Numbered from the stretch's first letter, positions 10,771 through 49,794 are shown. The stretch: 64,000 nt of DNA from an uncultured bacterium (GCA_937903605.1 CALCZC010000025.1:206618-270617); one strand, 5' to 3'. The notes: generated by a model not told the origin, from the sequence alone. Program-made: numbers and translations.

Positions 10771-12564
10771 TTAAATTTTAATTTTGTTTAATTGTGAAAG
10801 CTCATTAAAATATTTTTCTACTTCTTTAGTATCACCTTTTTCTTGAGCTTCGTTTAATAAAAATTTTATTTTATCTTTTTCAGTTTTTAACCATTCTTTG
10901 CGCATGCCTTCAAAAATTTTACCAATTATTTCTTTTAATTCTTTGTCGTCCTTATCTCCAAATTCTTTTTCCCCTTTCATTAGTAATATTTCTGCAATTT
11001 CTTTTTGTTTTTGGTCGGGCAAAATCGTTTCTAAATTTTTTAAATCAAAAACGGCTTTATTATTATAACTGTTTTTAATATTTTCGTAAAGTTCGCTAAA
11101 TTCCGGCAAAGAAAAATAATTTCTGTCCATTTTTGATAAAATTTCTATAAAAAATCCCTGTTTTTTCAATAAAATAGCTAAGAATTGTTCTTCTAAAACA
11201 CGGCTACGACTATTAAAAAGTTCAGAAAAATTACTTTCTCCTTTTTCTATTTCTTTTTTAGTTTTATTAAATTCTTTTTTATTTAAACTTCTCATGGTTT
11301 GTCGCAATAGTTCTGTTTGAACACTAAATTTATCCGACATCTTTTGCAACCAGTAGTCTTGTTCTATTTGCTCGGGAATTTTACTTATTTGTTCCAACAA
11401 TTCCCCAGCAGCTTTCTTTTTTTGCTGTGAATCTTGTAAAGAATATTTTTTTAATATATTTTCAAAAAACCATTCCATGATGAATTTGGCTTCTTCCACG
11501 GATCTAAACCAAACTTCCGGATTTTTTTTCAAACACTCATCCGCATCTTTTCCGGAATTTTCCGGAATTTGAATAACTTTTACATTCATCCCCTGAGCTA
11601 TGGCTGTGTCTATCCCGCGCTTGGCTGCATTTTCTCCGGCGCTGTCTTTATCAAAAGCCATAGCTATATTTTTTGTAAATCTTTTAATCAGACTTATTTG
11701 TTCCGCCGTCAAAGCCGTACCTGAAGCTGCGATCACATTTTTCATTCCCGCCTGATGACAAGCCAATACATCCATCTGACCTTCCACTAAAACAACCAAA
11801 TCTTTGTTTTTTATTTCTTGTTTTGCTTTATTTAAACCGTATAAAACTCTAGATTTATCATAAATTTCCGTTTGCGGCGTATTAACATATTTACCCCCGG
11901 AATTTTCCGTTTCTATCAAAACTCTTCCTGTAAATCCGACAACATTACCATGCACGTCAAAAAGCGGAAACATGATTCTTCCACGAAAACGATCAAAATA
12001 TCCCGAACCTCTTTCTTTTTTGAGCGATAATCCTGCGGCTATGATATCATCTACATTAAAACCTTTTTTCAATAAATATTGGGTCAATAAATCCCATTGA
12101 TCAGAAACAAAACCTATTTGCCACTCCTTTATCATCTCTAAGCTTAAACCTCTTTTTTCTAAATATTCCCGCGCCGGTTTGGCTTGGATCATCTCCAATA
12201 AAAAGTGGTGAAAAAAATTAGCAGCTTTGGAATTTATTTCCAACAATCTGTTTTTCTTGTCCTTATTAACTTCAGTAACAAAATTTTGAGTTAGTTTTAC
12301 TCCGGATCTATCCGCTAACAATTTTAAAGCTTCCGGAAAATTTATACCCTCTATTTCTTGTAAAAAAGAAAAGATATCTCCACCCTTACCACAACCAAAA
12401 CAATGCCAGATTTGTTTTTCCGGGGAAATCATAAAAGAAGGAGTTTTCTCGTGATGAAAGGGGCAGTTAGCTTTCCAATAAGCACCTGCCTTTTTCACCG
12501 GTATATACTCCTCTATAAGTTGCTTGATATCTATCTTGTCTTTTATGGACTGGACATCAGACAT
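10771..12564 (-). CDS. dnaG: DNA primase DnaG
   Basis: CHC2 zinc finger CPFHHEKTPSF...HCFGCG; Toprim domain; directly upstream of rpoD (classic operon). Confidence 0.95.
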   Translation of the reverse strand: MSDVQSIKDKIDIKQLIEEYIPVKKAGAYWKANCPFHHEKTPSFMISPEKQIWHCFGCGKGGDIFSFLQEIEGINFPEALKLLADRSGVKLTQNFVTEVNKDKKNRLLEINSKAANFFHHFLLEMIQAKPAREYLEKRGLSLEMIKEWQIGFVSDQWDLLTQYLLKKGFNVDDIIAAGLSLKKERGSGYFDRFRGRIMFPLFDVHGNVVGFTGRVLIETENSGGKYVNTPQTEIYDKSRVLYGLNKAKQEIKNKDLVVLVEGQMDVLACHQAGMKNVIAASGTALTAEQISLIKRFTKNIAMAFDKDSAGENAAKRGIDTAIAQGMNVKVIQIPENSGKDADECLKKNPEVWFRSVEEAKFIMEWFFENILKKYSLQDSQQKKKAAGELLEQISKIPEQIEQDYWLQKMSDKFSVQTELLRQTMRSLNKKEFNKTKKEIEKGESNFSELFNSRSRVLEEQFLAILLKKQGFFIEILSKMDRNYFSLPEFSELYENIKNSYNNKAVFDLKNLETILPDQKQKEIAEILLMKGEKEFGDKDDKELKEIIGKIFEGMRKEWLKTEKDKIKFLLNEAQEKGDTKEVEKYFNELSQLNKIKI

Positions 12565-12588
12565 AAAATAAACTAAAAAGTTTAAAAT

Positions 12589-12690
12589 CCTAAGCTCTAA
12601 TTTCTAATTTCTAAATAATATTATCCACCATGGCGGACAAATATCAAAATTAAATATTTGATATTAGATATTGTTTAGAATTTAAGGCTT
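12589..12690. repeat. solo inverted-repeat pair of the AGCTCTAAT/TTTAGAA 7-bp-periodic family around a ~45-bp spacer (cargo-less version of the 13990-14444 cassette arms)
   Basis: CCTAAGCTCTAATTTCTAATTTCTAAATAATATT ... ATATTGTTTAGAATTTAAGGCTT. Confidence 0.45.
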
Positions 12691-12738: not shown

Positions 12739-13983
12739 CTATTCTTTCCTCAATGCTTCAATTGGATTTAAATTCGCCGCTTTTTGAGCGGGATAAAGTC
12801 CAAAAATTAAACCTATAATTCCTGAAAAACCAACTGCCAAAATTATAGATGAAAGTGGTACAATATAAACCCAAACAAAATTATAAGAAACAGCTACTAA
12901 GTAAATAATTAATGCAAAAATCGCACCCAAAATAATTCCCAAAATTCCACCACTTAATGTCAAAATAACAGCTTCAGATAAAAACTGCCAAAGAACATCT
13001 TTGTTGGTAGCCCCAACCGCTTTGCGTAAACCTATTTCAAAAGTTCTCTCAGAAACGGAAACATACATGATATTCATAATTCCAACTCCACCAACCAAAA
13101 GAGAAACACAGACTAGAGCGACTAATAGCAAAGTCAATCCATCCACTACACTTCCGAGCATCTGTGCCGCTTCTTCCATAGTGTTTACAGCAAAATCATC
13201 TTTGTTGGGATCGGTAATATCGTGGTTATCTCGCATTATTTCTTCTATTTCCGCTACTGTTTCTTTAATTTTTTCCCGATCTTTTACTTTGGCTATAATA
13301 TTTATAAAATAATCAACCCCTAAAATTCTCTTTTGCATGGTTTTAGCCGGCAAAATTATCAGGTTATCCATATCAAAACCGAAAGTCGCGCCACGTTTGG
13401 CCGCCACTCCGACAACTTTAAACGGCTTACCTTTTATATACACGGTTTTACCCACCGCTTCATCTTCACCAAAAAGAGCGTCTTTGGTAGCGTGACCTAA
13501 AATTGCCACTTGAGAAAGGGACTCTTCCTCTTCTTTAGAATAAACTCGACCGGAATCCAATTGAAATTTTTCCACTTCGGGAAAACTATAACCCTGTCCC
13601 CATAGTAAAGTTGTTTTATTTTCACTTTGGTATTTTACCACCGCTTGCCCAATAACAAGCCCGTAAGCTGATTCTATATTTCTATGTTTCCCCACATCTA
13701 TCAAGTCTCTTTCTTTCAAAGTGGTGATAGTAATTCCGGTAGCCATACCCATCGCATTTTCACTGGAGGTTTTTTTGGTCGCCGGCACTTTTACTTCCAC
13801 GGTAATGGTATTGGGTGAATAAATTTCTAACTGACTCATTACCATCTTATCCAAGCCTCGTCCCGCAGACATTATAGCAATAACCACCGCAATACCAATA
13901 CTCACTCCAAGAATTGTCAAAAGAGTGCGGGTTTTCTGCGCCAACAAAGCTTTAAATGCCAGTTGTAGTGAAGTTTTATTCAT
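12739..13983 (-). CDS. ABC transporter permease, MacB-like (MacB periplasmic domain plus FtsX 4-TM)
   Basis: 414 aa; N-terminal TM, large periplasmic domain, C-terminal FtsX-type TM bundle ending NPIEALRKE. Confidence 0.75.
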   Translation of the reverse strand: MNKTSLQLAFKALLAQKTRTLLTILGVSIGIAVVIAIMSAGRGLDKMVMSQLEIYSPNTITVEVKVPATKKTSSENAMGMATGITITTLKERDLIDVGKHRNIESAYGLVIGQAVVKYQSENKTTLLWGQGYSFPEVEKFQLDSGRVYSKEEEESLSQVAILGHATKDALFGEDEAVGKTVYIKGKPFKVVGVAAKRGATFGFDMDNLIILPAKTMQKRILGVDYFINIIAKVKDREKIKETVAEIEEIMRDNHDITDPNKDDFAVNTMEEAAQMLGSVVDGLTLLLVALVCVSLLVGGVGIMNIMYVSVSERTFEIGLRKAVGATNKDVLWQFLSEAVILTLSGGILGIILGAIFALIIYLVAVSYNFVWVYIVPLSSIILAVGFSGIIGLIFGLYPAQKAANLNPIEALRKE

Positions 13984-13989
13984 AACTTA

Positions 13990-14444
13990 GTAGAAATTCT
14001 AAGCTCTAATCCCTAAATCCTAAACAATATTTAATATTAAATAAAAAATTAATCTTTGAATATGATAGAACCGAATATTTTCATTAATTGTGTAGCTTCA
14101 TCTATTAAACTTTTTTGATTTTCTTCTTCTAGAGTTACAGATAATCTTAACCATAAAATAGATTCTTTTGCTTCTTTACGACAAATTTTAATTCTCATCA
14201 TAAAATCTTTTTGACTCAACGCTTCACAAGCCTCTATATAATTTGCCGCCACAGAACCGGATGATCTAATAAGTTGTTTACCATATTCAATATTAGAAAT
14301 AGTTCTAGGCAAGCTTTTAATAAAATCTCTTACATTTCTTGCAAAAATAAAAGTTCTTTCTTCCAAATCGTAGTTTGTTCTTTTTTGTTTTTGAATTTCC
14401 TCCATTTTATATTGTTTAGAATTTAGAGCTTAGAAATTAGAGCT
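13990..14444 (-). mobile_element. IR-bracketed cassette carrying a four-helix-bundle (23S-IVS-type) protein gene, inserted between two MacB-like permease genes
   Basis: Left arm AAGCTCTAATCCCTAAATCCTAAACAATAT (13997-14030) and right arm ATATTGTTTAGAATTTAGAGCTTAGAAATTAGAGCTT (14406-14442) are imperfect inverted repeats that differ by one 7-bp unit. Confidence 0.5.
14049..14405 (-). CDS. four helix bundle protein (TIGR02436; 23S rRNA intervening-sequence protein family)
   Basis: 118 aa; ...GKQLIRSSGSVAANYIEA...EAKESILWLRL... matches the family signature. Confidence 0.8.
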   Translation of the reverse strand: MEEIQKQKRTNYDLEERTFIFARNVRDFIKSLPRTISNIEYGKQLIRSSGSVAANYIEACEALSQKDFMMRIKICRKEAKESILWLRLSVTLEEENQKSLIDEATQLMKIFGSIIFKD

Positions 14445-15680
14445 TCACTCGTAACGTAGTGCTTCTATTGGATCAAGTCTGCTTGCTTTACGCGCCGGAA
14501 TAATTCCAAAAACCAAACCTACTCCGACAGAAACAAAACAACCCAAAAATATCGCAGAAAAAGAAATAATGAATTCCCAATCATAACCCAACCCTTGAGC
14601 TATCCTAGCTACAACAAAAGAAATCATAACTCCCAAAAAGATTCCTATGATTCCACCAAGCGAGGTTATCATTACTGACTCTATCAAAAATTGAATGGTG
14701 ATATTTTTGTTTTTTGCACCCACTGCTTTACGCAACCCTATTTCTCTGGTTCTTTCTTGAACTGCGGCAAGCATAATATTCATAATTCCGACTCCACCCA
14801 CAAGCAGCGCGATAGCGGCTACGGCCACCAAAAACATAGTTAGGGCGTCAGTTATTTGTGTAACCGATTCCAATCCTTGCGCCATGGAACGAATGGAAAA
14901 ATCATCATTTTCCGGATTATCTATATCATGTCGCTCGCGTAAAACTATTTTGGCTTGATCCACCGCACTTTCTACATTTTTTGCTTCGTCAACTTTCAAT
15001 CTGGCAAAACTGACATGATCTATCCCAAGCAATAATTTTTGCGCCGTGGTCAAAGGGACAAAAATCTGGTCATCTTGATTTTGCATCCCGGAAACTCCTC
15101 TTTCTATCATCACCCCAATAACAGTAAAGAAGGTTTTTTTAATTTTTATTTGTTTACCGAGCGGATCTTCGTCCAAAAAAAGATCTCTGGCTGCATCATA
15201 GCCCAATACTGCTAATCTAGAATTTGTCTTTTCTTCTTCCTGAGTAAAAAATCTTCCTTTTTCAACTTTAGTGTCTTCCACCAAAAGATATTCGGCATTG
15301 ACACCGGTAAAATTAGTATCTATTTTTTGATCTTGCCAAGAAACAGTGTCTGTGCCTTTGACATAACCGGTACCGGCAATAAAATAAGGGATTTCTTTGA
15401 TCAGTTCTTTTATGTCGCCGTCAGTTAGAGTTGTTATAACCACACCCATCACCGAAGCCGGCGGACCTTTTTCATCCGCTTTACCTGGGAGTATACCTAC
15501 CAGATTTGTTCCCATACTTTTTACTTGATTGAGAATCAGACTTTGCGCCCCAGCACCAACTGACATTACTACAATCACCGACATCACGCCGATAACAATT
15601 CCAAGCATCGTCAAAAACGACCGAATTTTATTTCGGCCGATTATATGCCAAACATTTTTGATATTTTCAAAAATATCCAT
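14445..15680 (-). CDS. ABC transporter permease, MacB-like (second paralog)
   Basis: 411 aa; same architecture as 12739..13983; ends PIEALRYE. Confidence 0.75.
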   Translation of the reverse strand: MDIFENIKNVWHIIGRNKIRSFLTMLGIVIGVMSVIVVMSVGAGAQSLILNQVKSMGTNLVGILPGKADEKGPPASVMGVVITTLTDGDIKELIKEIPYFIAGTGYVKGTDTVSWQDQKIDTNFTGVNAEYLLVEDTKVEKGRFFTQEEEKTNSRLAVLGYDAARDLFLDEDPLGKQIKIKKTFFTVIGVMIERGVSGMQNQDDQIFVPLTTAQKLLLGIDHVSFARLKVDEAKNVESAVDQAKIVLRERHDIDNPENDDFSIRSMAQGLESVTQITDALTMFLVAVAAIALLVGGVGIMNIMLAAVQERTREIGLRKAVGAKNKNITIQFLIESVMITSLGGIIGIFLGVMISFVVARIAQGLGYDWEFIISFSAIFLGCFVSVGVGLVFGIIPARKASRLDPIEALRYE

Positions 15681-15684
15681 AAAA

Positions 15685-16410
15685 TTATTTTGCCAACTCT
15701 GTAGCTATTTGCGCGATCTGACGATTAATAACTTTTTCATCGCTTTCTATAACTCCGTCTTTGATACGTAAAATCCTTTTGGCATGTTCGGCAGTATAAC
15801 GTTCATGAGTTACCAAAATTATGGTTTTTCCTTCTTCGTTTAACGATTGTAATATTTTCATAATTTGTAATCCAGATTTACTATCTAGATTTCCTGTTGG
15901 TTCGTCCGCAAAAATAATTGAAGGGTTGTTAACTAAAGCACGGGCTATCGCCACTCTTTGTTTTTCGCCACCGGATAATTGCGAAGTATAATAATTTAAA
16001 CGATGTTCCAGTCCCACATTAACCAAAGCTTGTTTAGCTTTATAAACGCGGATATTACTATTACTCACCCCATCATAAAGGAGCGGCAACATTACATTTT
16101 CCAATACCGTAGTTCGCGGTAAAAGATTAAAAGATTGAAAAACAAAACCTACTTCTTTACTCCTCATCTGTGCCAATTCATCATCATTTAACTTACTGAC
16201 ATCTCTGTCTTTAAAAAAATATTTTCCACAGCTGCTTTTATCCAAAAAACTCAAAATATGCATAAGCGTGGATTTACCTGAACCGCTCGGACCCATTATC
16301 GCCACAAATTCACCTTCTTCTATTTGAAAGCTCATTTTATGAAGTACGGGTGTCACTACCTCGTCATTCACATACTCTTTACATAAATCTGTAACTTTTA
16401 TCAATGACAT
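15685..16410 (-). CDS. ABC transporter ATP-binding protein (MacB/LolD-type)
   Basis: [37 protein letters not shown]. Confidence 0.85.
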   Translation of the reverse strand: MSLIKVTDLCKEYVNDEVVTPVLHKMSFQIEEGEFVAIMGPSGSGKSTLMHILSFLDKSSCGKYFFKDRDVSKLNDDELAQMRSKEVGFVFQSFNLLPRTTVLENVMLPLLYDGVSNSNIRVYKAKQALVNVGLEHRLNYYTSQLSGGEKQRVAIARALVNNPSIIFADEPTGNLDSKSGLQIMKILQSLNEEGKTIILVTHERYTAEHAKRILRIKDGVIESDEKVINRQIAQIATELAK

Positions 16411-16411: not shown

Positions 16412-18136
16412 TTAACGAGTTGAAATGATTATTTCTTCGTCTTGTTGTAGACCTTCTAGGATTTCCACCTTACCGTCATCAGCTCGTAAACCGGTAACAA
16501 TCTGTCTATCCTGAGCTTGGCCGTTTACCAAAACCCGCACAAAACGACCGTTATCTCCGGACCTTAACGAACGACTCGGAATATACAAAACATTTTCACG
16601 TTTATCGGTTTTCAAAACGACGTTGGCGGTCATCCCGGATTTTATCTCCTTGTCAGTTTCTTCCAAAGCTACCTTTATTTTATAATAAACCACATCCTGA
16701 ATCACGGTAGCACTATAATCAATATTAACGAGTTTACCGACAAATTTTACTTCATCACCATAAGCGTCTAGAGTTATTTCCGCCGCATCATTTAATTTTA
16801 TTTTTGCTACATCGGTTTCGGGAATGTCCACAGTAATTTCAAAATGCGGTGTCAATAAATTGACCATTTTTTCCGACGGCATTATTTGTTCACCGACTTT
16901 TTTATTTATTTTAGCTACCACCCCGTCAATCGGTGCGCGAATAATAGCTTTTTCTCTGTTGGCTTGAGCCTGATACAATAAAGCTTTCAAAGCCGCTACA
17001 TCAACTTCTCTTGGCGGATTTACCCTGCTTTGATAACTAGCCAAAGCCTGATTATAGGAAGCTTGTTTGATATTAATATTATTGGTTACTGTATTTTTTA
17101 CAGTATTCAAATCGCTAAGCGCTTTATCATAAGCCAGCTTATAAGTACTATAACTGTTTTTGGCGTTAAAAATATTTTGTTTTTGTAAAATAATATTAGA
17201 GTAGTTGGTGGCAATAGTTGAGCGCTGAGTTTCGATAGTGGTTTTCTTGGCATCAAGCGCAGCTTGGGTCAAAGTACCAACCGGCGGAGTTGCGCGCAAA
17301 ACATCACCGACCATAGTTAGTAAAGTATTCATAGAAGAAAGAGCTTCTTCAATAGCATCCAGACCGTTATCAATCTCTATATAAACACTCTGTGAAGTCA
17401 AAGACAAGGTTTTATTTTTTGCCTCATTTATTTTTTCTTTAGTCAAAGGGTACTGATTTTCCGCTTGAATTTTTTTACTACTATCAAGCGCGGATAAATA
17501 AGTTTCAAAATCGTCATTGGCTAGCTTATTATCAATTCCCAAAATATTATCCGCCTGGGTCAAAGCGCTATCCAAAGCACTGCCGGCGGTTTTAATATAA
17601 GCCACGGCAGTTTTGTAAGCACTATCGACTATAGCACTACTATCGCCGCCTTCAGCCATTTTTAAATTATTTTTAGCAGTTTCCAAAGCTGTTTCCGCTT
17701 GGGCTACGGCGCTTAGAGAATCTACTCTGGCTTGATCCAAAGCTGCTTTGGCTGCATCCACAGCTGCCGCATAATACCTTTTGTCTTCGTCAGAAATTCC
17801 AGTTAAACGTTGTTGTAAATTAGCATTGGCTTGAGCCACAGCAGCATTGAGATCATCAGCTTTAAGTTCAGCCAAAATCTGGCCGGTTTTTACTTCCGCG
17901 CCTTCACTAACTAAAATTCTACCGACCGTACCGGACATCTCAAAATTTAATTTCAGATCTTGCGAAGATTCTATTTTACCGGTTGCATCCACTGTTTGTA
18001 CCAAATCACCGCGCATTACTTTCACTGTGTCGTATTGCGGCTCAGAGGGCGCTTTGAAGCGACCATAAGCAACAAAGGCAACGATAAGACCGACAATAAT
18101 TATCGCATAGAATTTTTTTTGTTTGTAAAAAGACAT
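16412..18136 (-). CDS. HlyD/MacA-family periplasmic adaptor (membrane fusion protein) with long coiled coil
   Basis: 574 aa; N-terminal TM, extended alpha-helical hairpin, C-terminal beta-barrel; first gene of the efflux operon. Confidence 0.7.
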   Translation of the reverse strand: MSFYKQKKFYAIIIVGLIVAFVAYGRFKAPSEPQYDTVKVMRGDLVQTVDATGKIESSQDLKLNFEMSGTVGRILVSEGAEVKTGQILAELKADDLNAAVAQANANLQQRLTGISDEDKRYYAAAVDAAKAALDQARVDSLSAVAQAETALETAKNNLKMAEGGDSSAIVDSAYKTAVAYIKTAGSALDSALTQADNILGIDNKLANDDFETYLSALDSSKKIQAENQYPLTKEKINEAKNKTLSLTSQSVYIEIDNGLDAIEEALSSMNTLLTMVGDVLRATPPVGTLTQAALDAKKTTIETQRSTIATNYSNIILQKQNIFNAKNSYSTYKLAYDKALSDLNTVKNTVTNNINIKQASYNQALASYQSRVNPPREVDVAALKALLYQAQANREKAIIRAPIDGVVAKINKKVGEQIMPSEKMVNLLTPHFEITVDIPETDVAKIKLNDAAEITLDAYGDEVKFVGKLVNIDYSATVIQDVVYYKIKVALEETDKEIKSGMTANVVLKTDKRENVLYIPSRSLRSGDNGRFVRVLVNGQAQDRQIVTGLRADDGKVEILEGLQQDEEIIISTR

Positions 18137-18195
18137 ACAAAATCAATTTTTAATTTTTAATTTAAAATTTTTAATTAGTTTTCAATATTCAATAT

Positions 18196-22262: not shown

Positions 22263-22342
22263 ACATACGAATAAATAGATACTAATATACAAATTGTACT
22301 AATGATACGAATGCTATACGAAAATTTATACGAATGAACAAA

Positions 22343-22417
22343 TTTTAGATTTATGATTTTTGATTTATGAATTACCGTTTTTGTCATTCTAAAATCTGCA
22401 ATCTAAAATCTGAAATT
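22343..22417 (+). repeat. ~75-bp AT-rich composite repeat, copy A (TTTAGATTTATGATTTTTGATTTATGAATTAC...TGTCATTCTAAAATCTGCAATCTAAAATCT)
   Basis: 7-bp periodicity; near-identical copies at 24216-24293, 26158-26234 (inverted) and 49671-49794. Confidence 0.7.
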
Positions 22418-22464
22418 AGTTAATCTTTCAATCTTTAAATCTTGTAATCTTTAAATTTTTTACC

Positions 22465-22493
22465 TTGCAATCTTGCAATTCATTTTATATAAT
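22465..22493 (+). promoter_or_regulatory. promoter TTGCAA-N17-TATAAT for the U32 peptidase gene (places the TSS within ~2 nt of the ATG; possibly leaderless)
   Basis: -10 ends 8 nt before ATG 22502. Confidence 0.45.
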
Positions 22494-22501: not shown

Positions 22502-23725
22502 ATGAAACCAAAACAAACTCATAAACCCATCCTCCTCGCTCCCGTCCGAGACGAGGTCTCTTTTACCGCCGCTATTGATGCCGGAGCGGATGCGGTTTAT
22601 TTTGGTATTGGTGAACTAAATATGCGATTAAGCTCCCGTGGGATAAATTTGAAACAACTCCCCCGCTTTGTCAAAAAAGCTCATCAAAAAAATGTTTTGG
22701 TTTATATCGCTCTGAATGTGATTGTTTATGAAAATGAACTGGCGCGAGTAGAAAAAATCCTCAAACAAATCAAAAAATCCGGAGTTGATGCCGTGATAGT
22801 TTCAGATTTTGCTATTATCTCTCTTTGTCAAAAACTCAAGATTCCTTTTCATCTTTCCACTCAAGTTAATATCAGTAATAGCTCTGAAGTGAAATTTTTT
22901 GAACGTCTCGGCGCCAAAGCCGTAGTACTCGCGCGCGAATGTACTCTATCTCAAATCAAAGAGATAAAAAAGAAAAGTAAAATCAAAATAGAAGTTTTTG
23001 TTCACGGTGCGATGTGTGTCTCTGTTTCCGGTCGTTGTTATATGTCGGAATTTACTTCTTGCAAATCCGCCAACCGCGGGCAGTGTTTGCAACCTTGTCG
23101 TCGTGAATATGAAATCAGAGACACCCAAACCGGTGATGAACTCGTCATTGGCAAAGGTTATGTGATGAGTCCGAAAGATCTTTGCACTTTACAAATCCTA
23201 GATAAAGTCATTGCAACCGGCGTGGACATTTTAAAAATAGAAGGCCGTAGTCGATCTCCGGAATATATCAAAACCGTAGTATCTGCTTATCGCCAAGCCA
23301 TAGATGCTGTAGCTACTAAAAAGTTCAACAAAAAACTGACTGACGAACTAATACAAAAAGTTTCTGGGGTGTATAATCGCGGATTTTCTACCGGCTTTCT
23401 TTTTGGCGCACCTAGTAGTGAAGGTTGGGCGAGAATTTCCGGAACTGCATCTAAAATAAAAAAAGAACGCCTCGGATACGTGCGTAATTATTATAGCAAA
23501 AATAAAATTGGGGAAATTTATCTGGAAGCCAATACTCTAAAAGCTGGTGATAAAATTCAAGTAGAAGGTCCAACTACCGGTGTTATTGATTTTGTTATCC
23601 TAGAATTTTGGGTGGATGATAAACCAGCCAAGAGCGCTAAATTGAAAGATGCGATAACGTTTAAGTCGCCGGTTGTTTTGAGAAGGAAGGATAAAGCATA
23701 TAAAATTACAAGATTACAAGATTAA
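22502..23725 (+). CDS. peptidase U32 family protein
   Basis: 407 aa; N-terminal PVRDEVSFTAAIDAGADAVYFG and central EIFVHGAMCVSVSGRCYMS, typical of U32. Confidence 0.7.
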   Translation: MKPKQTHKPILLAPVRDEVSFTAAIDAGADAVYFGIGELNMRLSSRGINLKQLPRFVKKAHQKNVLVYIALNVIVYENELARVEKILKQIKKSGVDAVIVSDFAIISLCQKLKIPFHLSTQVNISNSSEVKFFERLGAKAVVLARECTLSQIKEIKKKSKIKIEVFVHGAMCVSVSGRCYMSEFTSCKSANRGQCLQPCRREYEIRDTQTGDELVIGKGYVMSPKDLCTLQILDKVIATGVDILKIEGRSRSPEYIKTVVSAYRQAIDAVATKKFNKKLTDELIQKVSGVYNRGFSTGFLFGAPSSEGWARISGTASKIKKERLGYVRNYYSKNKIGEIYLEANTLKAGDKIQVEGPTTGVIDFVILEFWVDDKPAKSAKLKDAITFKSPVVLRRKDKAYKITRLQD

Positions 23726-23859
23726 AAGATTGTAAGATTGGACAATTTTAGATTTTTGATTTTTGATTTTAGATTGGTAATTGTCCGCCAAAGGCGGATC
23801 CGCCCGTGGCGGAAAAATTAATTAAAAATTGTAAAATTAAAAATTTAAAATTCTAATTA

Positions 23860-23888
23860 AAAAACTGCTCTTACGAGCAGTTTTTTAA
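23860..23888. terminator. bidirectional intrinsic terminator AAAAACTGCTCTTACGAGCAGTTTTTT between the convergent U32 and rplU genes
   Basis: GCTC-TTAC-GAGC hairpin with A-run on one side and T-run on the other. Confidence 0.65.
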
Positions 23889-24215
23889 TTAGTTGATTTT
23901 TACTTTGGTAAACGGTTGACGATGTCCGTAAGCTTTGTGGTATCTGACTTTTCGTTTGAATTTTTCCACAAGAATCTTTTTGGCACGGCCTTGCATTTCT
24001 ACACTGGCTTCTACGGTCATTTCCAAATATGGAGTACCGATTTTAACATCAGAACCGTCATCTTTGGCAGTCAAAAGGACTTTGTCAAAAACAACTTTCT
24101 CACCTTCTTTAACGGCAAGTTTTTCAATTTTAATGGCATCGCCGGTTTTTACCAAATATTGTTTACCGCCGGTTTCAATAACTGCGATCATAGTTTTGTG
24201 ATTAAATTTATCCAA
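23889..24215 (-). CDS. rplU: 50S ribosomal protein L21 (bL21)
   Basis: MIAVIETGGKQYLVKTGD... is the canonical L21 N-terminus; the true start is probably the internal Met at 24191. Confidence 0.9.
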   Translation of the reverse strand: MDKFNHKTMIAVIETGGKQYLVKTGDAIKIEKLAVKEGEKVVFDKVLLTAKDDGSDVKIGTPYLEMTVEASVEMQGRAKKILVEKFKRKVRYHKAYGHRQPFTKVKIN

Positions 24216-24293
24216 TTTTAGATTTATGATTTTTGATTTATGAATTACAGTTTTTTTGTCATTCTAAAATCTGCATTCTAAAATCTAAAATTC
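24216..24293 (+). repeat. ~75-bp AT-rich composite repeat, copy B (in the rplU 5' leader)
   Basis: Same sequence family as 22343-22417. Confidence 0.7.
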
Positions 24294-24869: not shown

Positions 24870-24904
24870 AAATTAATTATTAGAAATATTGAATATTAAA
24901 TATT

Positions 24905-24975
24905 GGATATTAACCACCCCTCGCCCCTCCTTCGTAAGGAGGGGAAAATATTCAATATCCAGTATTCAGTATTAA
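24905..24975. repeat. GC hairpin element CCCCTCCTT-CGT-AAGGAGGGG flanked by inverted AATATTGAATATT repeats, copy 1
   Basis: Core at 24924-24944; second copy at 48257-48276; three tandem variants in-frame inside rarA at 48877-48971. Confidence 0.65.
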
Positions 24976-26024
24976 ATATTTTGTTTATTTTTTCTCGCCA
25001 ACCAAAAACCCAAACACAGCATAGCCACACACAACAATCCCAAAACCAAAAGCTTTTGCCAGCTTTGTAAAAATAAAGTAGTAAAACCAAAGGCAAAAGC
25101 AATGATATAAAATAATATTACACTTTGACGATGGCCCAGTCCTGCATCAACAAGTTGAAAATGCAGATGTCGTCTATCGCCTTTATAAAAAGGTTGTTTG
25201 TGTAAAATCCTCATGAAAATAACTCGCGCTAAATCCAAAATCGGAATTGCCATTACCAAAAGTGCGGTAGCAATTTTTCCGCCAGCGATAACTGCGAGTA
25301 CTCCAAGCAGAAATCCGAGCAGTAATGATCCACCTTCGCCCAAAAATATTTTTGCCGGATAAAAATTAAAAAATAAAAATCCCAAACATGCACCTGCCAA
25401 AATCAAAGCTAACGTGGCAGTTTCAGGTTGAAAAAATTTGGCAGTATTGGAAAGTGAAGCGATCATCAAAGCACCGATAAAAACTATCCCTGTAGTTAAA
25501 CCATCCAGACCGTCCAAAATTTTTGTAGTGTACATCATCCCGAGTAACCAGAAAAAAACTATTAGATCAGCTAAAATAAAAATATGACCGTAGCCAAATA
25601 AATCAAGCCCAAAAATTTCCAAATTAATAATTCCACCAAAAGGATTTGTGACCATTTGTAAATCTACTCCACCAAGTACAGCGATAGCTATAGCCGCGCA
25701 AGTTATCATTAATCTTTTCTTGGCTGATAAATTTTCTTTATCATCAAAAAATCCCAAAATCATCAAAATGACACTTCCCAAAAATACCCCTATAAATTCA
25801 CGAGGTTCAATATGGCGATGAAAAATATCGGTAAAAAAAGACAAATACCCTACTACTGACCAAAAACTCAAAAATATTGCCAAACCGCCCAAAAGTGGAA
25901 CATTGCGACCGTGAAGTTTGCGAATTCCTTCGGGTTTATCCACAATATCCAATTTTTTAGCTAATTTTAGCGTAAAAAATGTAAAAATAAGGGATAATAT
26001 GAAAGTTATAAGAAAATATTGCAT
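24972..26024 (-). CDS. GT4-family polyprenyl-phosphate N-acetylhexosamine-1-phosphate transferase (WecA/TagO/MraY family; WecA-like by N-terminus)
   Basis: 350 aa, ~10 TM; KLDIVDKPEGIRKLHGRNVPLLGGLAIF resembles the WecA N-terminus. An MraY assignment cannot be excluded by eye. Confidence 0.6.
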   Translation of the reverse strand: MQYFLITFILSLIFTFFTLKLAKKLDIVDKPEGIRKLHGRNVPLLGGLAIFLSFWSVVGYLSFFTDIFHRHIEPREFIGVFLGSVILMILGFFDDKENLSAKKRLMITCAAIAIAVLGGVDLQMVTNPFGGIINLEIFGLDLFGYGHIFILADLIVFFWLLGMMYTTKILDGLDGLTTGIVFIGALMIASLSNTAKFFQPETATLALILAGACLGFLFFNFYPAKIFLGEGGSLLLGFLLGVLAVIAGGKIATALLVMAIPILDLARVIFMRILHKQPFYKGDRRHLHFQLVDAGLGHRQSVILFYIIAFAFGFTTLFLQSWQKLLVLGLLCVAMLCLGFWLARKNKQNI

Positions 26025-26093: not shown

Positions 26094-26157
26094 TTTTGGG
26101 ATTCTAATATATTATCAAACATAATCAAAGTATTCAAAAATCTAAATGTTTTACATA

Positions 26158-26234
26158 TTTTAGATTTTAGAATGCAGATTTTAGAATGACAAAAAATGAT
26201 AATTCATAAATCTTAAATCATAAATCTTAAATTT
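26158..26234 (-). repeat. ~75-bp AT-rich composite repeat, copy C (inverted; in the rpmA 5' leader)
   Basis: Reverse complement matches copies A and B. Confidence 0.7.
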
Positions 26235-26242: not shown

Positions 26243-26521
26243 ATGTCCCATAAAAAAGCCGGTGGCTCAACGCGGTTGGGTCGAGATAGTATAGCCAAAA
26301 GACTTGGTATCAAAGTTCATGACGGACAAGAAATCAAATCAGGCATGATTATCGTAAAACAAAGAGGTACAAAAATTCATCCTGGAACCAATGTAAAAAA
26401 AGGAACAGATGATACATTGTTTGCTCTTACCCCAGGTAAAGTAAAATTTACCAACAAGAAAAGAATGCGTTTTGATGGAAAACTCAAAATTGCAAAATAC
26501 GCAAATGTAGTGACGAAATAA
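26243..26521 (+). CDS. rpmA: 50S ribosomal protein L27 (bL27)
   Basis: [16 protein letters not shown]...[14 protein letters not shown] is canonical L27. Confidence 0.9.
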
Positions 26522-26547
26522 TACTGAATACTAGATACTGAATATTA

Positions 26548-26585
26548 AAAAACATTCGTTTTAAAACGAATGTTTTTTGTTTTTA
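26548..26585. terminator. bidirectional terminator AACATTCGTTTT-AAAACGAATGTT followed by T-run
   Basis: Perfect 12-bp palindrome between the rpmA stop and the epimerase gene stop. Confidence 0.65.
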
Positions 26586-26641
26586 ATCAAACTTTTCTTC
26601 AACTCGTCAATATCCAATATTTAATATTCAATATTTTCATT

Positions 26642-27604: not shown

Positions 27605-27678
27605 TGTCATTCCCGCGAAGGCGGGAATCCAGTGGCCGTTTTGATTTTTCCTGGATCCCCGCCTTCGCGGGGATGACA
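27605..27678. repeat. GC-rich nested-hairpin palindromic element (TGTCATTCCCGC-GAAG-GCGGGAATCCAG ... CTGGATCCCCGC-CTTC-GCGGGGATGACA)
   Basis: ~28-bp terminal inverted arms, each itself an 8-bp GC hairpin with a tetraloop; related copies at 42790, 46690, 47491 and 51009. Confidence 0.7.
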
Positions 27679-42715: not shown

Positions 42716-42789
42716 AAAGTTTTATAAAGTTTTTCCAATTTATGATTTATGATTTTAGAATTATGAATTATGATTTACAATCGACAAGT

Positions 42790-42880
42790 TGTCATCCTGA
42801 ACCTCAGGTGAAGGATCCCTTAAACAATGTTTAAAAAAATAGTTAAACTACAAGGGATTCTTCGCTCCGCTCAGAATGAC
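42790..42880. repeat. GC-rich palindromic element of the GTCATYCTGAAC...GAAGRATCCC family
   Basis: Arms GTCATCCTGAACCTCAGGTGAAGGATCCC and, reverse-complemented, GTCATTCTGAGCGGAGCGAAGAATCCC; embedded in an AT-repeat copy ending AATCTGCATTCTAAAATCTAAAATT. Confidence 0.65.
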
Positions 42881-42923
42881 GAAATGGTTTACCAATCATC
42901 AATCTGCATTCTAAAATCTAAAA

Positions 42924-43931
42924 TTATTCGCACATCAGTGCGACAAGTTCTTTGAACTTGACTTTCGGTTCCCACCCAAGAATATTCTTCGCTTTGGTGG
43001 CATCACCTAAAAGTAAATCCACTTCCGCCGGACGAAAATAACGTTTATCTATTTCAATAATAGTTTTACCGGTATTTTTATCTATTCCCACTTCCTGTAT
43101 CCCGCTCCCCTGCCAAACAATATCAAAACCGAAATATTTTCCCGCAACTTCAGCAAATTCGCGCACAGTATGAGTTTCTCCAGTGGCAATAACATAATCA
43201 TCGGGTTTATCTTGTTGAAGCATTTTCCACATCGCTTCTACATAATCTTTTGCATATCCCCAATCGCGTTTGGCATCCAGGTTGCCTAAATATAATTTTT
43301 CTTGTTTACCTTCTTTGATATTTCGTAACGCATCGGTGATTTTTTTGGTAACAAAGGTCCCGCCACGACGAGGAGATTCGTGGTTAAAAAGAATTCCGTT
43401 ACAGATAAACATATCATATGACTCGCGATAATTCACACACAGCCAATGCGCGTAAACTTTAGCACAAGCATAAGGACTGCGCGGATAAAAAGGCGTTGTT
43501 TCTTTTTGCGGAGTTTCTTGTACCTTACCAAACATTTCAGATGATCCAGCTTGATAAAATCTGGTTTTTATACCGGTCTCTTTGATAGCGTCCAGCAATC
43601 GTAAAGTTCCCAGTCCATCGGTATTACCTGTGAAAACCGGCATTTCAAAACTTACTTGCACATGACTTTGTGCACCGAGATTATAAATTTCATCAGGTTT
43701 TATTTGCTCCAAAAGGCGAGAAATATTACTACCATCGGTCAAATCTCCATAATGCAAAAACAATTTTACACCGTTCACATGCGGATCTTGATAAAGATGA
43801 TCAATGCGAGAAGTATTGAAAGTGCTGCTACGGCGAATCAAACCATGAACTTCATAGCCTTTAGATAGTAATAACTCGGCTAGGTATGAGCCATCTTGGC
43901 CGGTTATGCCGGTGATGAAAGCTTTTTTCAT
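42924..43931 (-). CDS. gmd: GDP-mannose 4,6-dehydratase
   Basis: [22 protein letters not shown] is the canonical Gmd N-terminus. Confidence 0.9.
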
Positions 43932-43957
43932 ATGTATAATCCGAATAACAATTTAAA

Positions 43958-44434
43958 GATTTAAAGATTGAAAGATTTAAAGATTGTTAAATTGTGTAAC
44001 TATTTTTTGTAATGTAAATTATCCAACAAATAACTACGAAAATTCGATAAATGGGTAGAAATCTTGTATATTTCTTCAATTAAATTTTCTGCTGTTTTAT
44101 TTTCTATATAATTATTATCCAATAAAATATATAGAATCGTTCTGACTTCTCCAGCTGAACCTTTGGCAATATTTATAAAATTAGCAAATTCTTTATTTGA
44201 ACTTCTTTCAAAACCTTCAGCTATATTTAAAGAGATTGAATAGGTCGCTCTTTTTAATTGATCACAGATAGAATAGTCCTTTTTTAATTTTTGATTATCG
44301 TCAATCAACTTATAAATATTAGCAACAAATTTTCTTGAAATTTGCCAAATTGGAATATCTTCAAATTTTTTATACTGCATACCCTCCCTTATTAATTAAA
44401 TTTTTAATCTTTAAATCTTTCAATCTTTAAATCT
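43958..44434 (-). mobile_element. cassette with perfect ~29-bp inverted repeats bracketing a second four-helix-bundle protein gene
   Basis: GATTTAAAGATTGAAAGATTTAAAGATT at 43958-43987; its exact reverse complement AATCTTTAAATCTTTCAATCTTTAAATC at 44406-44434. Confidence 0.6.
44000..44380 (-). CDS. four helix bundle protein (TIGR02436; 23S rRNA IVS protein family), second copy
   Basis: 126 aa; ...ATYSISLNIAEGFER...GSAGEVRTILY... family signature. Confidence 0.8.
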   Translation of the reverse strand: MQYKKFEDIPIWQISRKFVANIYKLIDDNQKLKKDYSICDQLKRATYSISLNIAEGFERSSNKEFANFINIAKGSAGEVRTILYILLDNNYIENKTAENLIEEIYKISTHLSNFRSYLLDNLHYKK

Positions 44435-44441
44435 TGCAATT

Positions 44442-46589: not shown

Positions 46590-46689
46590 TAGCATAATCT
46601 GATATTTCAGATTTATGATTTCAGATTGATGATTTCAGATTTATGATTAATAAATATTGGATATTAGAATATTAGATATTAAAATAATA

Positions 46690-46854
46690 TGTCATTCCCG
46701 CCTCCGAGCGGGAATCCAGTAGTTCGTCATTCTGAATTTATTTCAGGATCTCCCTTTTGTGGCTCAGTAGGGAGATGCCGAAACAAGTTCGGCATGACAC
46801 TTTGTGCTAATTTTTCCTGGATCCCCGCCTTCGCGGGGATGACACAACCTGTCA
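46690..46854. repeat. composite/nested GC-rich palindromic element (TGTCATTCCCGC...GCGGGGATGACA with an internal GTCATTCTGAAT...GGCATGACAC element)
   Basis: Same conserved termini as 27605-27678, with a second element nested between the arms. Confidence 0.65.
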
Positions 46855-46925
46855 TTCTAAAATCTGCAATCATAAATTGTTTGCTAACAAAATAAAACCC
46901 CTATCAGATTAATAAATATATATTT

Positions 46926-47429
46926 ATGAAAGAGTTATTAATTAAGAATGAGAAGGAAATGCTTGATTTCGGAAAAAAAATCGCCGCTGAACTTAAAAGC
47001 GGAGATGTTTTGTGTTTGTATGGGGATTTGGGGGCTGGAAAAACTACGATAACCAAGGGGGTCGCTCAATATTTCGGGATTAAAAAAAGAATCACCAGTC
47101 CGACATTTACTATTTTTAATGTTTATAAATTATCTACAGAAAATTATAAACCGGATCAACCCGACTTCGCTAAAGCTACGCCGGGCAAGCTAAATTTATC
47201 CGAATGCCCCGAATGCAACAAAAAGCCGAAATTATTGGTGCATATCGATGCTTATAGGGTAAAAGACGAGGAAGAATTGTTGGATGTAGGCATTGATGAT
47301 TATTTGGGAGATAGTGAGACTGTTTGCGTGGTAGAATGGGCGGAAAAAGTACCAGATCTTCTTAAAAAAAAGAAATGTGTAGAAGTACACATTGAACACA
47401 CGGAGACGGGACGAAAAATACGATATTAA
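46926..47429 (+). CDS. tsaE: tRNA threonylcarbamoyladenosine biosynthesis ATPase TsaE
   Basis: P-loop GDLGAGKTT and overall YjeE/TsaE fold, with a ~30-aa insertion. Confidence 0.7.
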   Translation: MKELLIKNEKEMLDFGKKIAAELKSGDVLCLYGDLGAGKTTITKGVAQYFGIKKRITSPTFTIFNVYKLSTENYKPDQPDFAKATPGKLNLSECPECNKKPKLLVHIDAYRVKDEEELLDVGIDDYLGDSETVCVVEWAEKVPDLLKKKKCVEVHIEHTETGRKIRY

Positions 47430-47490
47430 TCTCAAAAGTCAAAACGCAAAAGTCAAAACCAAAACCTTAAATGTCAAAACTAACACAAAG

Positions 47491-47581
47491 TGTCATTACG
47501 AATCCGCAAAGCGGATGAAGTAATCCCACTGTTTTCTGAATTTTGTGGGATTGCTTCGTCATTACACTCCTCGCAATGACA
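47491..47581. repeat. GC-rich palindromic element (TGTCATTACGAATCCGC-AAA-GCGGAT ... TCGCAATGACA)
   Basis: Same family; lies between the convergent tsaE and queH genes. Confidence 0.6.
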
Positions 47582-47586
47582 AGGTT

Positions 47587-48168
47587 TTAAGGTTTTAAGT
47601 TGTAGTTTTGAGATTTGACATTTGAGTTTTGAGTTCGGTTTTCTACCGAAAACCGACATCCACAATAATCCTGCCGATAAATCTTTCTATCAGCAACCAT
47701 CTTCCTTCCCTTCTCCTGTCTTCCTCCTGTTTTCCAATCAACATCTAAAAACTTCAAACCAAGCTTTTTGGCGATACTGCTCCCAAGTGGATGGATAACA
47801 TCCGCTTTTTTGTTTCTACCACTGGTCAAAGTAGTGGCAAAAATATCAAAACTATTTTTAACTGCATATTCTCCGGCTTTTTGAAGGCGTATGACAAAAC
47901 ATTTTACACATCTGACACCACCTTCGGGAGCATTTTCTAAACCTTTGACACTTTCTTCCCATTTTTGCGTTTCATAATCCGCATCAACCATAGGTATTTT
48001 CCATTCTTTACAAACACGAACTACTTCGGCTTTACGTTTTAAATATTCTGACTCCGGATAAATATTTGGATTATAAAAATAAACCGTCAAATCATAGAGG
48101 CCTTTCAATTCATCGATGATAGCGATACTGCAGGGAGCGCAGCATACATGAAGTAAACACCTTTGCAT
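47587..48168 (-). CDS. queH: epoxyqueuosine reductase QueH (DUF208)
   Basis: LLHVCCAPCS and YRQDYCGC cysteine motifs. Confidence 0.75.
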   Translation of the reverse strand: MQRCLLHVCCAPCSIAIIDELKGLYDLTVYFYNPNIYPESEYLKRKAEVVRVCKEWKIPMVDADYETQKWEESVKGLENAPEGGVRCVKCFVIRLQKAGEYAVKNSFDIFATTLTSGRNKKADVIHPLGSSIAKKLGLKFLDVDWKTGGRQEKGRKMVADRKIYRQDYCGCRFSVENRTQNSNVKSQNYNLKP

Positions 48169-48229
48169 AAAAAATTTATAAATTTCAAGATTTAAAGATT
48201 AAAAGATTGAAAGATTTTGATATTGGATA

Positions 48230-48295
48230 TTGAATATTAAATATTAACCACCCCTACCCCTCCTTCGTAAGGAGGGTAATATCCAGTATTCAATA
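48230..48295. repeat. GC hairpin element CCCCTCCTT-CGT-AAGGAGGG with flanking AATATT repeats, copy 2
   Basis: Core at 48257-48276; same as 24924-24944. Confidence 0.65.
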
Positions 48296-48303
48296 TTCAT
48301 TAT

Positions 48304-49653
48304 TTATTTTCGCAAGTATTTTTTATTTTTCAACTCTTCCGGCAAATATTCTTGATCAACAGGTCCGGTGTGATCCGGATTATATTTATAACCATCACCA
48401 TAACCGATATCTTTCATAAAACCCGTCACTGCATTGCGCAGGTGAAGTGGTACACCCAGATGAGAAGTATTTTCCGCATCTTTCATCGCCTTTTCATAAG
48501 CCACATACAACAAATTGGACTTGGTGGATTTGGCGCAATAAACTACAGCTTGAGCTAGATGAACTCCGCATTCAGGCATACCCAAACGATGACAAGCGTC
48601 GTACGCGGCATTGGCTTGGATAAGCGCTTCGCCATTGGCCATACCAATATCCTCACTGGCAAATCTGACCACTCGTCGCGCCACATAAAGAGGATCGGCT
48701 CCACCCTGCAACATTCGAGCTAACCAATAAATAGCAGCATCCGGATCGCTACCGCGCATAGATTTGTGTAGCGCGGAAATGAGGTTATAAAATTCCTCTC
48801 CTTGTTTATCAAAAACCACGTTTACTTTTTGTGCCGCTTCTTTAACAATTTCTTTGGTGATGTCTACCTCACCCCGCCCCTCTCCTTTTAAAGGAGAGGG
48901 TGACTGACCTCCCCCCGCCCCTCCTTCGTAAGGAGGGGATAATTGTCCCTCCTCTCCTTGCGAAGGAGAGGATTGAGGTGAGGTCTTCACCGCTAACTCC
49001 AAAATATTCAATGCTGTCCGCGCATCACCACCGGAAAAAAAGACGATACTTTTAATCACCTCATCATCAATTTTTATTTTTATATCTCCCAATCCTCGCT
49101 CTTTGTCCATCAACGCTCTTTTTATCACTTGAACCAAATCCTCTTCACCAAGAGATTTCAAAACAAAAACTCGCGAACGAGAAAGTAAAGCGCGAATAAT
49201 TTCAAACGAAGGATTTTCCGTAGTAGCGCCGATAAGAATTATTTCTCCCTGTTCTACATAAGGCAATAATGCATCTTGTTGGGCTTTATTCCAACGATGA
49301 ATTTCATCAATAAATAGAATAGTGCGCAAATTTTCTTTTTCTTTTTTTTCTTTGGCCACTATTACTGCCTGACGCAACTCTTCTTTACCGCTCATCACCG
49401 CAGATAGTTGAATAAAGTGAGATTTTGTTTTAGTGGCAATAATTTTGGCCAAAGTTGTTTTACCTACTCCCGGTGGTCCCCAAAAAATCAATGAAGTTAA
49501 ATCATCGCTTTCTATCAAACGGCGCAATATCTTACCCTGACCCACGATATCGGCCTGTCCAAAAAATCCGTCAAAATCAAGAGGACGCATACGCTCGGCG
49601 AGAGGAACAGAGTTTGTTGCTACAGTTTGAATTTTGTTCTGTTTAGGAGACAT
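48304..49653 (-). CDS. rarA: replication-associated recombination protein A (RarA/MgsA AAA+ ATPase) with ~40-aa low-complexity insertion
   Basis: GPPGVGKTTLA, DEIHRWNKAQQD, C-terminal MgsA_C; the insertion SPSQGEEGQLSPPYEGGAGGGQSPSPLKGEGRGE is encoded by three tandem GC hairpin repeats. Confidence 0.85.
   Translation of the reverse strand: MSPKQNKIQTVATNSVPLAERMRPLDFDGFFGQADIVGQGKILRRLIESDDLTSLIFWGPPGVGKTTLAKIIATKTKSHFIQLSAVMSGKEELRQAVIVAKEKKEKENLRTILFIDEIHRWNKAQQDALLPYVEQGEIILIGATTENPSFEIIRALLSRSRVFVLKSLGEEDLVQVIKRALMDKERGLGDIKIKIDDEVIKSIVFFSGGDARTALNILELAVKTSPQSSPSQGEEGQLSPPYEGGAGGGQSPSPLKGEGRGEVDITKEIVKEAAQKVNVVFDKQGEEFYNLISALHKSMRGSDPDAAIYWLARMLQGGADPLYVARRVVRFASEDIGMANGEALIQANAAYDACHRLGMPECGVHLAQAVVYCAKSTKSNLLYVAYEKAMKDAENTSHLGVPLHLRNAVTGFMKDIGYGDGYKYNPDHTGPVDQEYLPEELKNKKYLRK
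48877..48971. repeat. three tandem GC hairpin repeats (CCCTCTCCTTT-T-AAAGGAGAGGG; CCCCTCCTT-CGT-AAGGAGGGG; CCTCTCCTT-GCG-AAGGAGAGG) in-frame inside rarA
   Basis: Same family as the intergenic copies at 24924 and 48257. Confidence 0.65.
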
Positions 49654-49670
49654 AATCTTTATAAAAAATA

Positions 49671-49794
49671 TTTTAGATTTATGATTTATGATTTAAGAAT
49701 TATGAATTATGTAACAAAATACAAAATATTACAAAATTACAAAAAAGATAAGTTGTCCTGTCATTCTAAAATCTGCATTCTAAAATCTAAAATT
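49671..49794 (+). repeat. AT-rich composite repeat, copy D (with a ~45-bp internal insertion)
   Basis: TTTTAGATTTATGATTTATG...TGTCATTCTAAAATCTGCATTCTAAAATCTAAAATTC. Confidence 0.65.

Follow-up and report, generated by a model that had tools for sequence, protein, structure and literature searches.

The origin and meaning of rRNA intervening sequences (IVSs) have been a question for more than 30 years. IVSs with an S23p/PF05635 ORF are found in Leptospira, Coxiella burnetii, Brucella and Xanthomonas, at helix 25 or helix 45 of the 23S rRNA. These elements are ~430–760 nt in length, lack a promoter of their own, are sporadically distributed and show signs of horizontal transfer (PMC4990558). 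The 23S IVS of Coxiella consists of an S23p ORF with terminal inverted repeats that form a 28 bp stem, cut mid-stem by RNase III, and three tandem heptamers (GACAGAT ×3) abut the ATG (PMC4990558). According to the account given in PMC4990558, Ralph and McClelland proposed in 1993 that the IVS ORF is a mobility component. ORFs of the 23S_rRNA_IVP family (PF05635) have also been reported in rRNA insertions of CPR bacteria (PMC11270868). Elsewhere, PF05635-type genes have been reported in cas loci, and a comparison of Arthrospira described ‘four helix bundle protein’ genes as strain-unique with best matches in Chloroflexi, which fits horizontal transfer. The family is unmentioned in the HEPN survey (PMC3710099), and the literature that we searched held no description of arms or mobility for PF05635 members outside rRNA.

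A second described system of relevance is the DGR protein Avd, whose pentameric, positively charged barrel binds structured RNA; in the Avd-bound RNA, distal segments upstream and downstream of the template pair together (bioRxiv 10.1101/2023.10.23.563531).

Here, we describe a PF05635 gene situated between protein-coding genes in a 64 000 nt stretch of DNA from an uncultured bacterium, the whole of which we refer to as the window. The window is AT-rich (35 % GC), its closest protein matches are from Candidatus Magasanikbacteria (Patescibacteria/CPR), and no rRNA genes were found within its 64 kb. The gene order on the minus strand is T2SSE ATPase, CCA/poly(A) polymerase, HlyD-type fusion protein (16412–18136), ABC ATPase (15685–16410), MacB-type permease 1 (14445–15680), a 118 aa ORF (14049–14405), MacB-type permease 2 (12739–13983), an intergenic hairpin and dnaG (10771–12564). 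Both permeases were identified by matches to the MacB_PCD and FtsX domains, giving an operon with the layout HlyD–ABC–permease 1–cassette–permease 2. No RT domain was present in the eight genes flanking the cassette, and no long direct repeat was found near it, so that no template/variable repeat pair was seen there. Transposase and recombinase genes were absent from the neighbours of the cassette, both in the window and at the other loci inspected.

The first-pass annotation of this DNA had placed a TIGR02436-like protein between the two permeases, and profile searches bore this out. The 118 aa ORF scored 47.7 bits with PF05635 23S_rRNA_IVP (cut-off 33.8; E 1.9e-12) and 68.9 bits with TIGR02436 ‘four helix bundle protein’ (cut-off 24; E 3.9e-19), and its sequence also matched PDB 2RLD (E 1.3e-9). 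The AlphaFold model (pLDDT 91.2) contains four predicted helices at residues 2–31, 36–60, 65–88 and 94–117, and its best fold matches were 2RLD (TM 0.76–0.85) and 2GSC, followed at a greater distance by Bordetella phage DGR Avd (8UB7_E and 4DWL). In the literature, the 2GSC and 4DWL proteins are homopentameric toroids. PF05635/TIGR02436 proteins share the motif G..R...S...N..E (PMC3936711), seen in the 118 aa protein as R47-x3-S51-x3-N55-x2-E58; S51, N55 and E58 were invariant in both of our alignments (A1 and A2), whilst R47 showed no variation in A1 and a conservation of at least 90 % in A2. Comparison with the copy of the gene at a second locus, L001, gave a dN/dS of 0.09, indicating that the protein is maintained by purifying selection. 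The absence of a Shine–Dalgarno sequence was considered as a mark of special translation and rejected as uninformative, since only 1 of 51 genes in the window has one.

The imperfect inverted repeats of 7 bp units claimed to bracket this gene were recovered as a pair of 43 nt arms (13993–14035 and 14404–14446) that are 79 % complementary and separated by 368 nt; the two arm strings given in the first-pass annotation lie at 14001–14030 and 14409–14445. The arms measure 35–43 nt, and the cassette as a whole ~450 bp. On the minus (sense) strand, the 5′ arm AAGCTCTAATTTCTAAGCTCTAAATTCTAAACAATAT (14406–14446), which is followed by AAA and the ATG, is built from C-T-A-A-A-n-n heptamers and begins at the stop codon of permease 1. 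Downstream of the gene, an untranslated spacer and the 3′ arm together occupy 13994–14048 on the minus strand. The spacer (14031–14048) consists of AATATT-type repeats, the arm itself is ATATTGTTTAGGATTTAGGGATTAGAGCTTAGAATTT (13994–14030), and 10 nt (13984–13993) separate it from the ATG of permease 2. The folding check suggested in the first-pass annotation gave a minimum-free-energy structure of the sense RNA in which the arms are predicted to pair in a stem of ~45 bp, the inner 20 bp of which are continuous (z = −2.66). A scan of the window detected no promoter-like site on the sense strand within or just upstream of the 5′ arm.

A relative of the cassette that lacks the gene lies between permease 2 and dnaG on the minus strand. 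It had been placed at 12589–12690 and was found at 12585–12690, with 12585–12622 being 84 % identical to 13994–14031 and 12663–12690 being 86 % identical to 14404–14431. The centre of this cargo-less copy is a short GC hairpin (12621–12640) with a terminator-like score. A 23 nt arm probe, allowed up to three mismatches, matched only the cassette and the cargo-less copy within the 64 kb, with 0 matches expected by chance, and the window contains one gene-carrying copy of this cassette type.

The cassette resembles the 23S IVSs in that it contains an ORF of the same protein family, terminal inverted repeats capable of forming a long stem, and heptamers directly upstream of the start codon. Unlike those elements, it is located between the protein genes of an operon rather than in rRNA, and none of the 80 loci of its subfamily described below lies in an rRNA gene. 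Another difference concerns the stems: mismatches recur periodically in those of the cassette family, leaving only ~81 % of positions paired, and the stem in Coxiella has almost none. We read the element in the window as an IVS-type cassette placed in an mRNA, a variation on the known IVS design.

The closest relatives of the operon (L164–L171) were obtained by protein search and contig look-ups, and their permease junctions exist in several states. In L164, L170 and L171 (76–77 % nucleotide identity), the permease genes share 8 nt (GATATGAATAA) and no sequence intervenes. L165–L167, which share 88 % nucleotide identity with the window and a permease 1 that is 99 % identical at the amino acid level, have a 131 nt element at the junction, in which a GC-centred hairpin of the GAATATT type is combined with a 3′ arm of the TTTAG type that has no partner. 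A 107 nt relative of the window’s cargo-less element occupies the junction in L168 and L169, and in L027 a different PF05635 subtype with its own arms is found there. None of ~30 more distant two-permease operons among the matches listed had this gene at the junction. The comparison of orthologous operons proposed in the first-pass annotation thus revealed both empty junctions and junctions with a hairpin only (107–131 nt). Together with the presence of the same cassette at the L001 locus, this supported the suggestion that a stem-bracketed cassette had inserted into a protein-coding operon, at a point where, in relatives, the two permease genes overlap.

The boundaries of the insertion carry traces of sequence exchange. 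Until 16 nt short of the permease 1 stop codon, the window is identical to L165. The last 16 nt of this gene (14445–14460, minus strand; A-L-R-Y-E-stop), which form the left edge of an apparently replaced tract, differ from L165 at 9 of 16 positions, all synonymously, and permease 2 departs from L165 to an unusual degree over its first ~38 nt (75 % identity versus >90 % further on). The diverged edges in both permeases look like a replaced tract, i.e. allelic exchange by recombination in the flanking genes. The inserts of L165 and L168 are flanked by ATGAATAG and ATGAATTA, which duplicate the 8 nt overlap ATGAATAA of the empty site; in the window, the overlap is recoded. The duplicated overlap could be a target-site duplication, and could equally reflect the sole kind of insertion that keeps both genes intact.

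Further upstream, we observed a MazE-antitoxin-like small gene between the poly(A) polymerase and HlyD genes of three relatives (L164:1148–1450, L170:1304–1522 and L171:379–681), whereas the same gap in the window (18137–18195) is only 59 nt in length. This is another small-gene presence/absence polymorphism at an operon junction.

The same cassette was found at a different locus in a genome syntenic with the window. L001, which is on the same contig as L164, contains a 452 nt cassette including the arms, with 86 % identity to that of the window, between a glycosyltransferase-4 gene and a DUF192 gene. The corresponding site in the window is occupied by a different hairpin. Between the window and L001, dS was 0.70 for the cassette gene and 0.99–1.90 for nine host genes of the same genome pair. 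The lower value for the cassette fits movement after the genomes split, although with only 69 synonymous sites this is suggestive only. Across the 3′ spacer and arm, 50 of 56 nt match the L001 copy in spite of the ORF dS of 0.70, and identity so far above the synonymous-site level indicates that the non-coding arm is constrained too. In other contexts the gene lies amongst cell-envelope genes (L001), in a purine operon (L172–L181) or beside SMC (L003). Recent multi-site transposition was considered and rejected for the exact protein P0052, which was found in the same purK–gene–purM context in 24 of the 24 contigs examined. Taken as a whole, mobility and the unit character of gene plus arms are well supported.

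A scan of species-representative genomes for the same protein subfamily yielded 80 loci, mostly with 57–70 % amino acid identity, from many CPR lineages, Planctomycetota (including Scalindua), Desulfobacterota, Chloroflexota, Verrucomicrobiota, Bacteroidota and Methanophagales (ANME) archaea. For each locus, 100 nt on either side of the gene were searched for the best inverted repeat linking the two flanks, and in 85 % of 81 loci this repeat surpassed the 99th percentile of displaced controls. The absence of rRNA locations (0/80 loci) and the frequency of significant flanking repeats agree with the view taken in the first-pass annotation, that the cassette is a mobile or selfish module rather than a dedicated rRNA element.

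The consensus and register of the arms are conserved across phyla. The 5′ arm comprises four full C-X-A-A-A-n-n units and a partial fifth (five A-tracts at a 7 nt pitch) and its terminal AAACAA is placed exactly 6 nt ahead of the ATG; the stop codon is followed by a spacer of 20–40 nt and then by TTGTTT-X′-G and the complementary units. Arm length is sharply fixed at four full units and one partial unit on both sides, and the heptameric periodicity is evident from a lag-7 identity of 0.55 in the family arms, compared with ~0.3 at other lags. The second base of the repeat, X, may be T, G or C and is uniform within one element. It is paired with its complement in the other arm in 86 % of cases, versus 47 % in shuffles, and the covariation score of the whole stem (0.228 versus 0.123) was matched by 0 of 500 shuffles. 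When the register was slid, only 24–50 % of cells paired. The nearest protein neighbour had the same X (arm) class in 51 of 65 cases, against a chance expectation of 0.38. The gene and its arms travel together between loci and phyla.

The orientation of the cassettes is similarly constrained. The gene upstream pointed the same way as the cassette gene at 69 of 76 loci, and the gene downstream did so at 67 of 77; at 58 loci this held for both neighbours, and at no locus did both point the opposite way. The upstream stop codon and the ATG are separated by a median of 51 nt, about as long as the arm itself. With few exceptions, the cassette lies in sense within a host transcription unit running in the same direction, and its arms take up the intergenic space. 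This orientation bias and the short upstream distance constitute the strongest argument for dependence on read-through transcription.

Other PF05635 genes are organized in a comparable manner. A second cassette (43950–44441, minus strand), with a 126 aa PF05635 gene at 44000–44380, lies in a polysaccharide locus of the window, between an O-antigen-ligase-like gene and a GDP-mannose dehydratase gene. Its arms (43950–43985 and 44406–44441) are unrelated to those of the first cassette, being 36 nt in length, 94 % complementary and composed of 8 nt units (TTTAAAGA), and its gene has a strong Shine–Dalgarno sequence (AAGGGAGGG), unlike nearly all genes of the window. In L184, where the ligase-like gene shares 80 % amino acid identity, the same junction contains a different PF05635 subtype with ATAAAGT-type arms; this subtype and arm type also occur at the L027 permease junction, i.e. 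at two different sites. No cassette follows the ligase-like gene in L182 or L183. With three PF05635 subtypes whose arm types track the gene and not the site, each subtype carries its own arms, and some junctions have been occupied repeatedly. The bracket is not universal among PF05635 genes, since the gene in the planctomycete locus L156 has no arms.

Periodic inverted-repeat hairpins of other sequence types, with 7 or 8 nt units, were present in ~10 of the 27 intergenic gaps of at least 50 nt in the window, and nine gaps reached an inverted-repeat score unmatched by any coding control. Gaps with periodic hairpins are located at 22340–22480, 23705–23865, 24214–24292, 24870–24980, 26157–26232, 26520–26640, 42738–42927, 46604–46686, 47428–47635, 48170–48304 and 49670–49793, and their tandem-unit families are TTTAGAT/TTTATGA, GAATATT, CAAAAGT and AAAGATTT. 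The architecture is therefore common in this genome, whilst the arm sequence of the cassette is not.

Palindromic elements of other kinds were also observed. A GC-rich, near-perfect hairpin (TGTCATTCCCGCGAAGGCGGGAATCCAG / CTGGATCCCCGCCTTCGCGGGGATGACA; 28 nt, 93 % complementary) lies at 27605–27678 and also at 46689–46895, and L004 and L016 have similar hairpins (GTCATTCC...GGAATGAC) at their permease junctions. The MgsA/RarA-like AAA+ ATPase gene (48304–49653, minus strand) has an in-frame insertion of 35 aa at 48866–48984 that is absent from L184 and L182. The insertion consists of three GC-rich palindromes (CCCCTCCTTACGAAGGAGGGG and variants), resembling the in-frame palindromic elements of Rickettsia, and CCCCTCCTTACGAAGGAGGGG also forms the centre of the intergenic hairpin at 24870–24971 and of the L165 junction insert. 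At four loci of the cassette family (L086:2930–3000, L088:2930–3000, and the downstream arms of L110 and L124), a GC-rich palindrome (CCTGCCTACCGGCAGGCAGG or similar) lies within one arm and splits its heptamer array, so that palindromic elements invade cassettes as well.

The pattern of complementarity between the arms bears on whether they are maintained as an RNA helix. Cognate arms have a mean duplex energy of approximately −28 kcal/mol, and complementarity is kept only in the 5 nt core of each heptamer. At the two to three variable positions of the heptamer, 52 % of cells were paired compared with 53.5 % in shuffles, giving no excess, and a cognate 3′ arm had no pairing advantage over non-cognate arms of its class. 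There was no excess of G–U over A–C mismatches, either overall (129 versus 127) or at core positions (11 versus 13), and without this asymmetry a constraint at the RNA level, specific to the sense strand, is not demonstrated. Nor did the 3′ spacer occlude the start codon in a locus-specific manner, with 7.69 of 9 positions paired for cognate and 7.61 of 9 for non-cognate combinations (P = 0.2). The motifs AAGCA in the 5′ arm and GATATT in the 3′ arm are non-complementary yet conserved, which hints at recognition of a sequence and not of a helix. The negative pairing tests fit inverted arrays of a 5 nt recognition core equally well.

Several other classes of element share individual features with the cassette. 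Like MITEs and REP/BIME sequences, it belongs to a population of short, non-autonomous, intergenic inverted-repeat elements in which cargo-less copies outnumber gene-carrying ones and which act as sites of recombination and turnover. It differs from them in that its arms are internally periodic, have a set number of units and stand at a set distance from the start codon, and in that the gene-carrying form combines strict sense orientation to host transcription with the lack of a recognisable transposase. The cassette is reminiscent of integron cassettes in being an apparently promoter-less single ORF with an imperfect inverted-repeat site, inserted co-directionally and presumably expressed from an upstream host promoter, and in that different cassettes may occupy the same site. 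Unlike integron cassettes, it has repeats on both sides of the ORF, is associated with no integrase, attI or attC, and occurs singly, scattered in ordinary operons. The likeness to Avd is one of predicted structure, the modelled four-helix-bundle fold appearing homologous to 8UB7_E and 4DWL. The sequence identity to Avd is ~14 %, and in contrast to the DGR setting, no reverse transcriptase, template or variable repeat lies beside the cassette.

Amongst the explanations for the locus, we regard it as very unlikely that the arms are generic intergenic hairpins (terminators or REP-like) surrounding a gene that lies between them by chance and forms no unit with them. The first-pass annotation had itself raised generic intergenic repeats as an alternative, and in one respect this stood: periodic hairpins are common in the longer gaps of the window, the window’s orthologue of the L001 cassette site has a different hairpin, and the centre of the cargo-less copy scores as a terminator. 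As an account of the arms themselves it failed, because their sequence and register follow the gene in 80 loci from unrelated phyla, whose intergenic repeats must differ. The explanation is also at odds with arms common to the window and L001 at different loci, with three PF05635 subtypes each having its own arms (one of them, the L027 type, at two sites, L027 and L184), and with the different cassette types found at one site in the window’s second cassette and L184, and we consider it largely refuted. The least credible explanation is that the small protein is a dedicated accessory or regulator of MacB-type efflux and the stems are operon-internal regulatory structures. Such a role could account for a gene inside the operon in sense orientation and for the different PF05635 gene at the same junction in L027, but it is highly improbable given that the closest relatives of the operon lack the gene, and that the gene also occurs in unrelated operons (L001, L172–L181, L003 and the polysaccharide locus of the window and L184).

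A reading in which the arms act as DNA is possible, if on balance improbable. The arms would be terminal inverted arrays of a C-X-A-A-A binding motif at a 7 bp pitch, like the subterminal sites of transposons, and the element would move in a MITE-like manner, mobilized by a trans-acting factor or by an arm-binding, pentameric four-helix-bundle protein. Two inverted copies of one double-stranded motif give exactly the observed restriction of complementarity to the 5 nt core, and the missing G–U/A–C asymmetry is in keeping with this. The fixed arm length of four full units and one partial unit, the co-inheritance of arm class with protein lineage, the frequency of cargo-less elements with shared arms, and the duplication of ATGAATAA around the L165 and L168 inserts, if it is a target-site duplication, favour the same reading. 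Against these points, no catalytic motif can be recognised in the 118 aa helical bundle, its gene lacks transposase or recombinase genes in the vicinity, and an orientation bias of 58 to 0 with respect to host transcription is unexpected from DNA transposition alone. The 8 nt duplication is demanded equally by selection on insertion between overlapping genes, and the constant context of P0052 in 24 contigs means that recent bursts of transposition are not evident.

We favour, with a probability of roughly 60 %, the interpretation that the locus is a promoter-less, IVS-type selfish cassette within a protein-coding operon, which relies on host read-through and whose arms fold into an RNase III-type stem. 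Lacking its own promoter, the cassette would be transcribed by read-through from the host operon. By analogy with the homologous 23S rRNA IVSs, for which experiments have demonstrated such cleavage, the arms in the transcript would fold into a long stem that is cut by RNase III; an anatomy shared with the Coxiella IVS, and the PF05635 ORFs in rRNA insertions of CPR bacteria, favour this mode of excision. The cut might free a small mRNA whose ends are paired and protected, while the host RNAs on either side stayed usable, so that the insertion would be tolerated. Spread among related genomes may proceed at least partly via recombination, both within the host genes that flank the cassette and from one repeat arm to another, which would generate the allelic states of one junction: empty, hairpin only and full cassette.

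A more far-reaching proposal, speculative and rather unlikely, is that PF05635 proteins and periodic arms constitute a very large, cross-domain family of minimal mobile cassettes that settle, always in sense, at operon junctions as well as in rRNA, and in which the five subunits of a toroid each read one C-X-A-A-A unit and the protein acts on the RNA of its cassette. It should be noted that the coincidence between pentameric crystals of family proteins and approximately five units per arm is a lead, not evidence. One subunit per unit would account for the conservation of the core only, the fixed number of units and the tendency of arm class to follow protein lineage. The protein would then be the element’s own nucleic-acid-binding factor, with a role in RNA processing, protection or copying parallel to that of Avd on DGR RNA, and the mobility proposal of Ralph and McClelland from 1993 would become testable.

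PF05635/TIGR02436 is one of the big families of unknown function, and the 118 aa query alone reaches 5,248 clusters at 50 % identity. If gene plus arms is a general, orientation-dependent hitch-hiker on host transcripts, the rRNA IVSs become a special case of a broader group of mobile cassettes, and both the family name and the annotation ‘S23 ribosomal protein’ would be misleading. The arms would represent a concrete, conserved nucleic-acid partner with which the protein could be tested, in parallel to Avd in the DGRs. The cassettes and their cargo-less hairpins would, in addition, be a source of rapid turnover at operon junctions in the reduced genomes of CPR bacteria.
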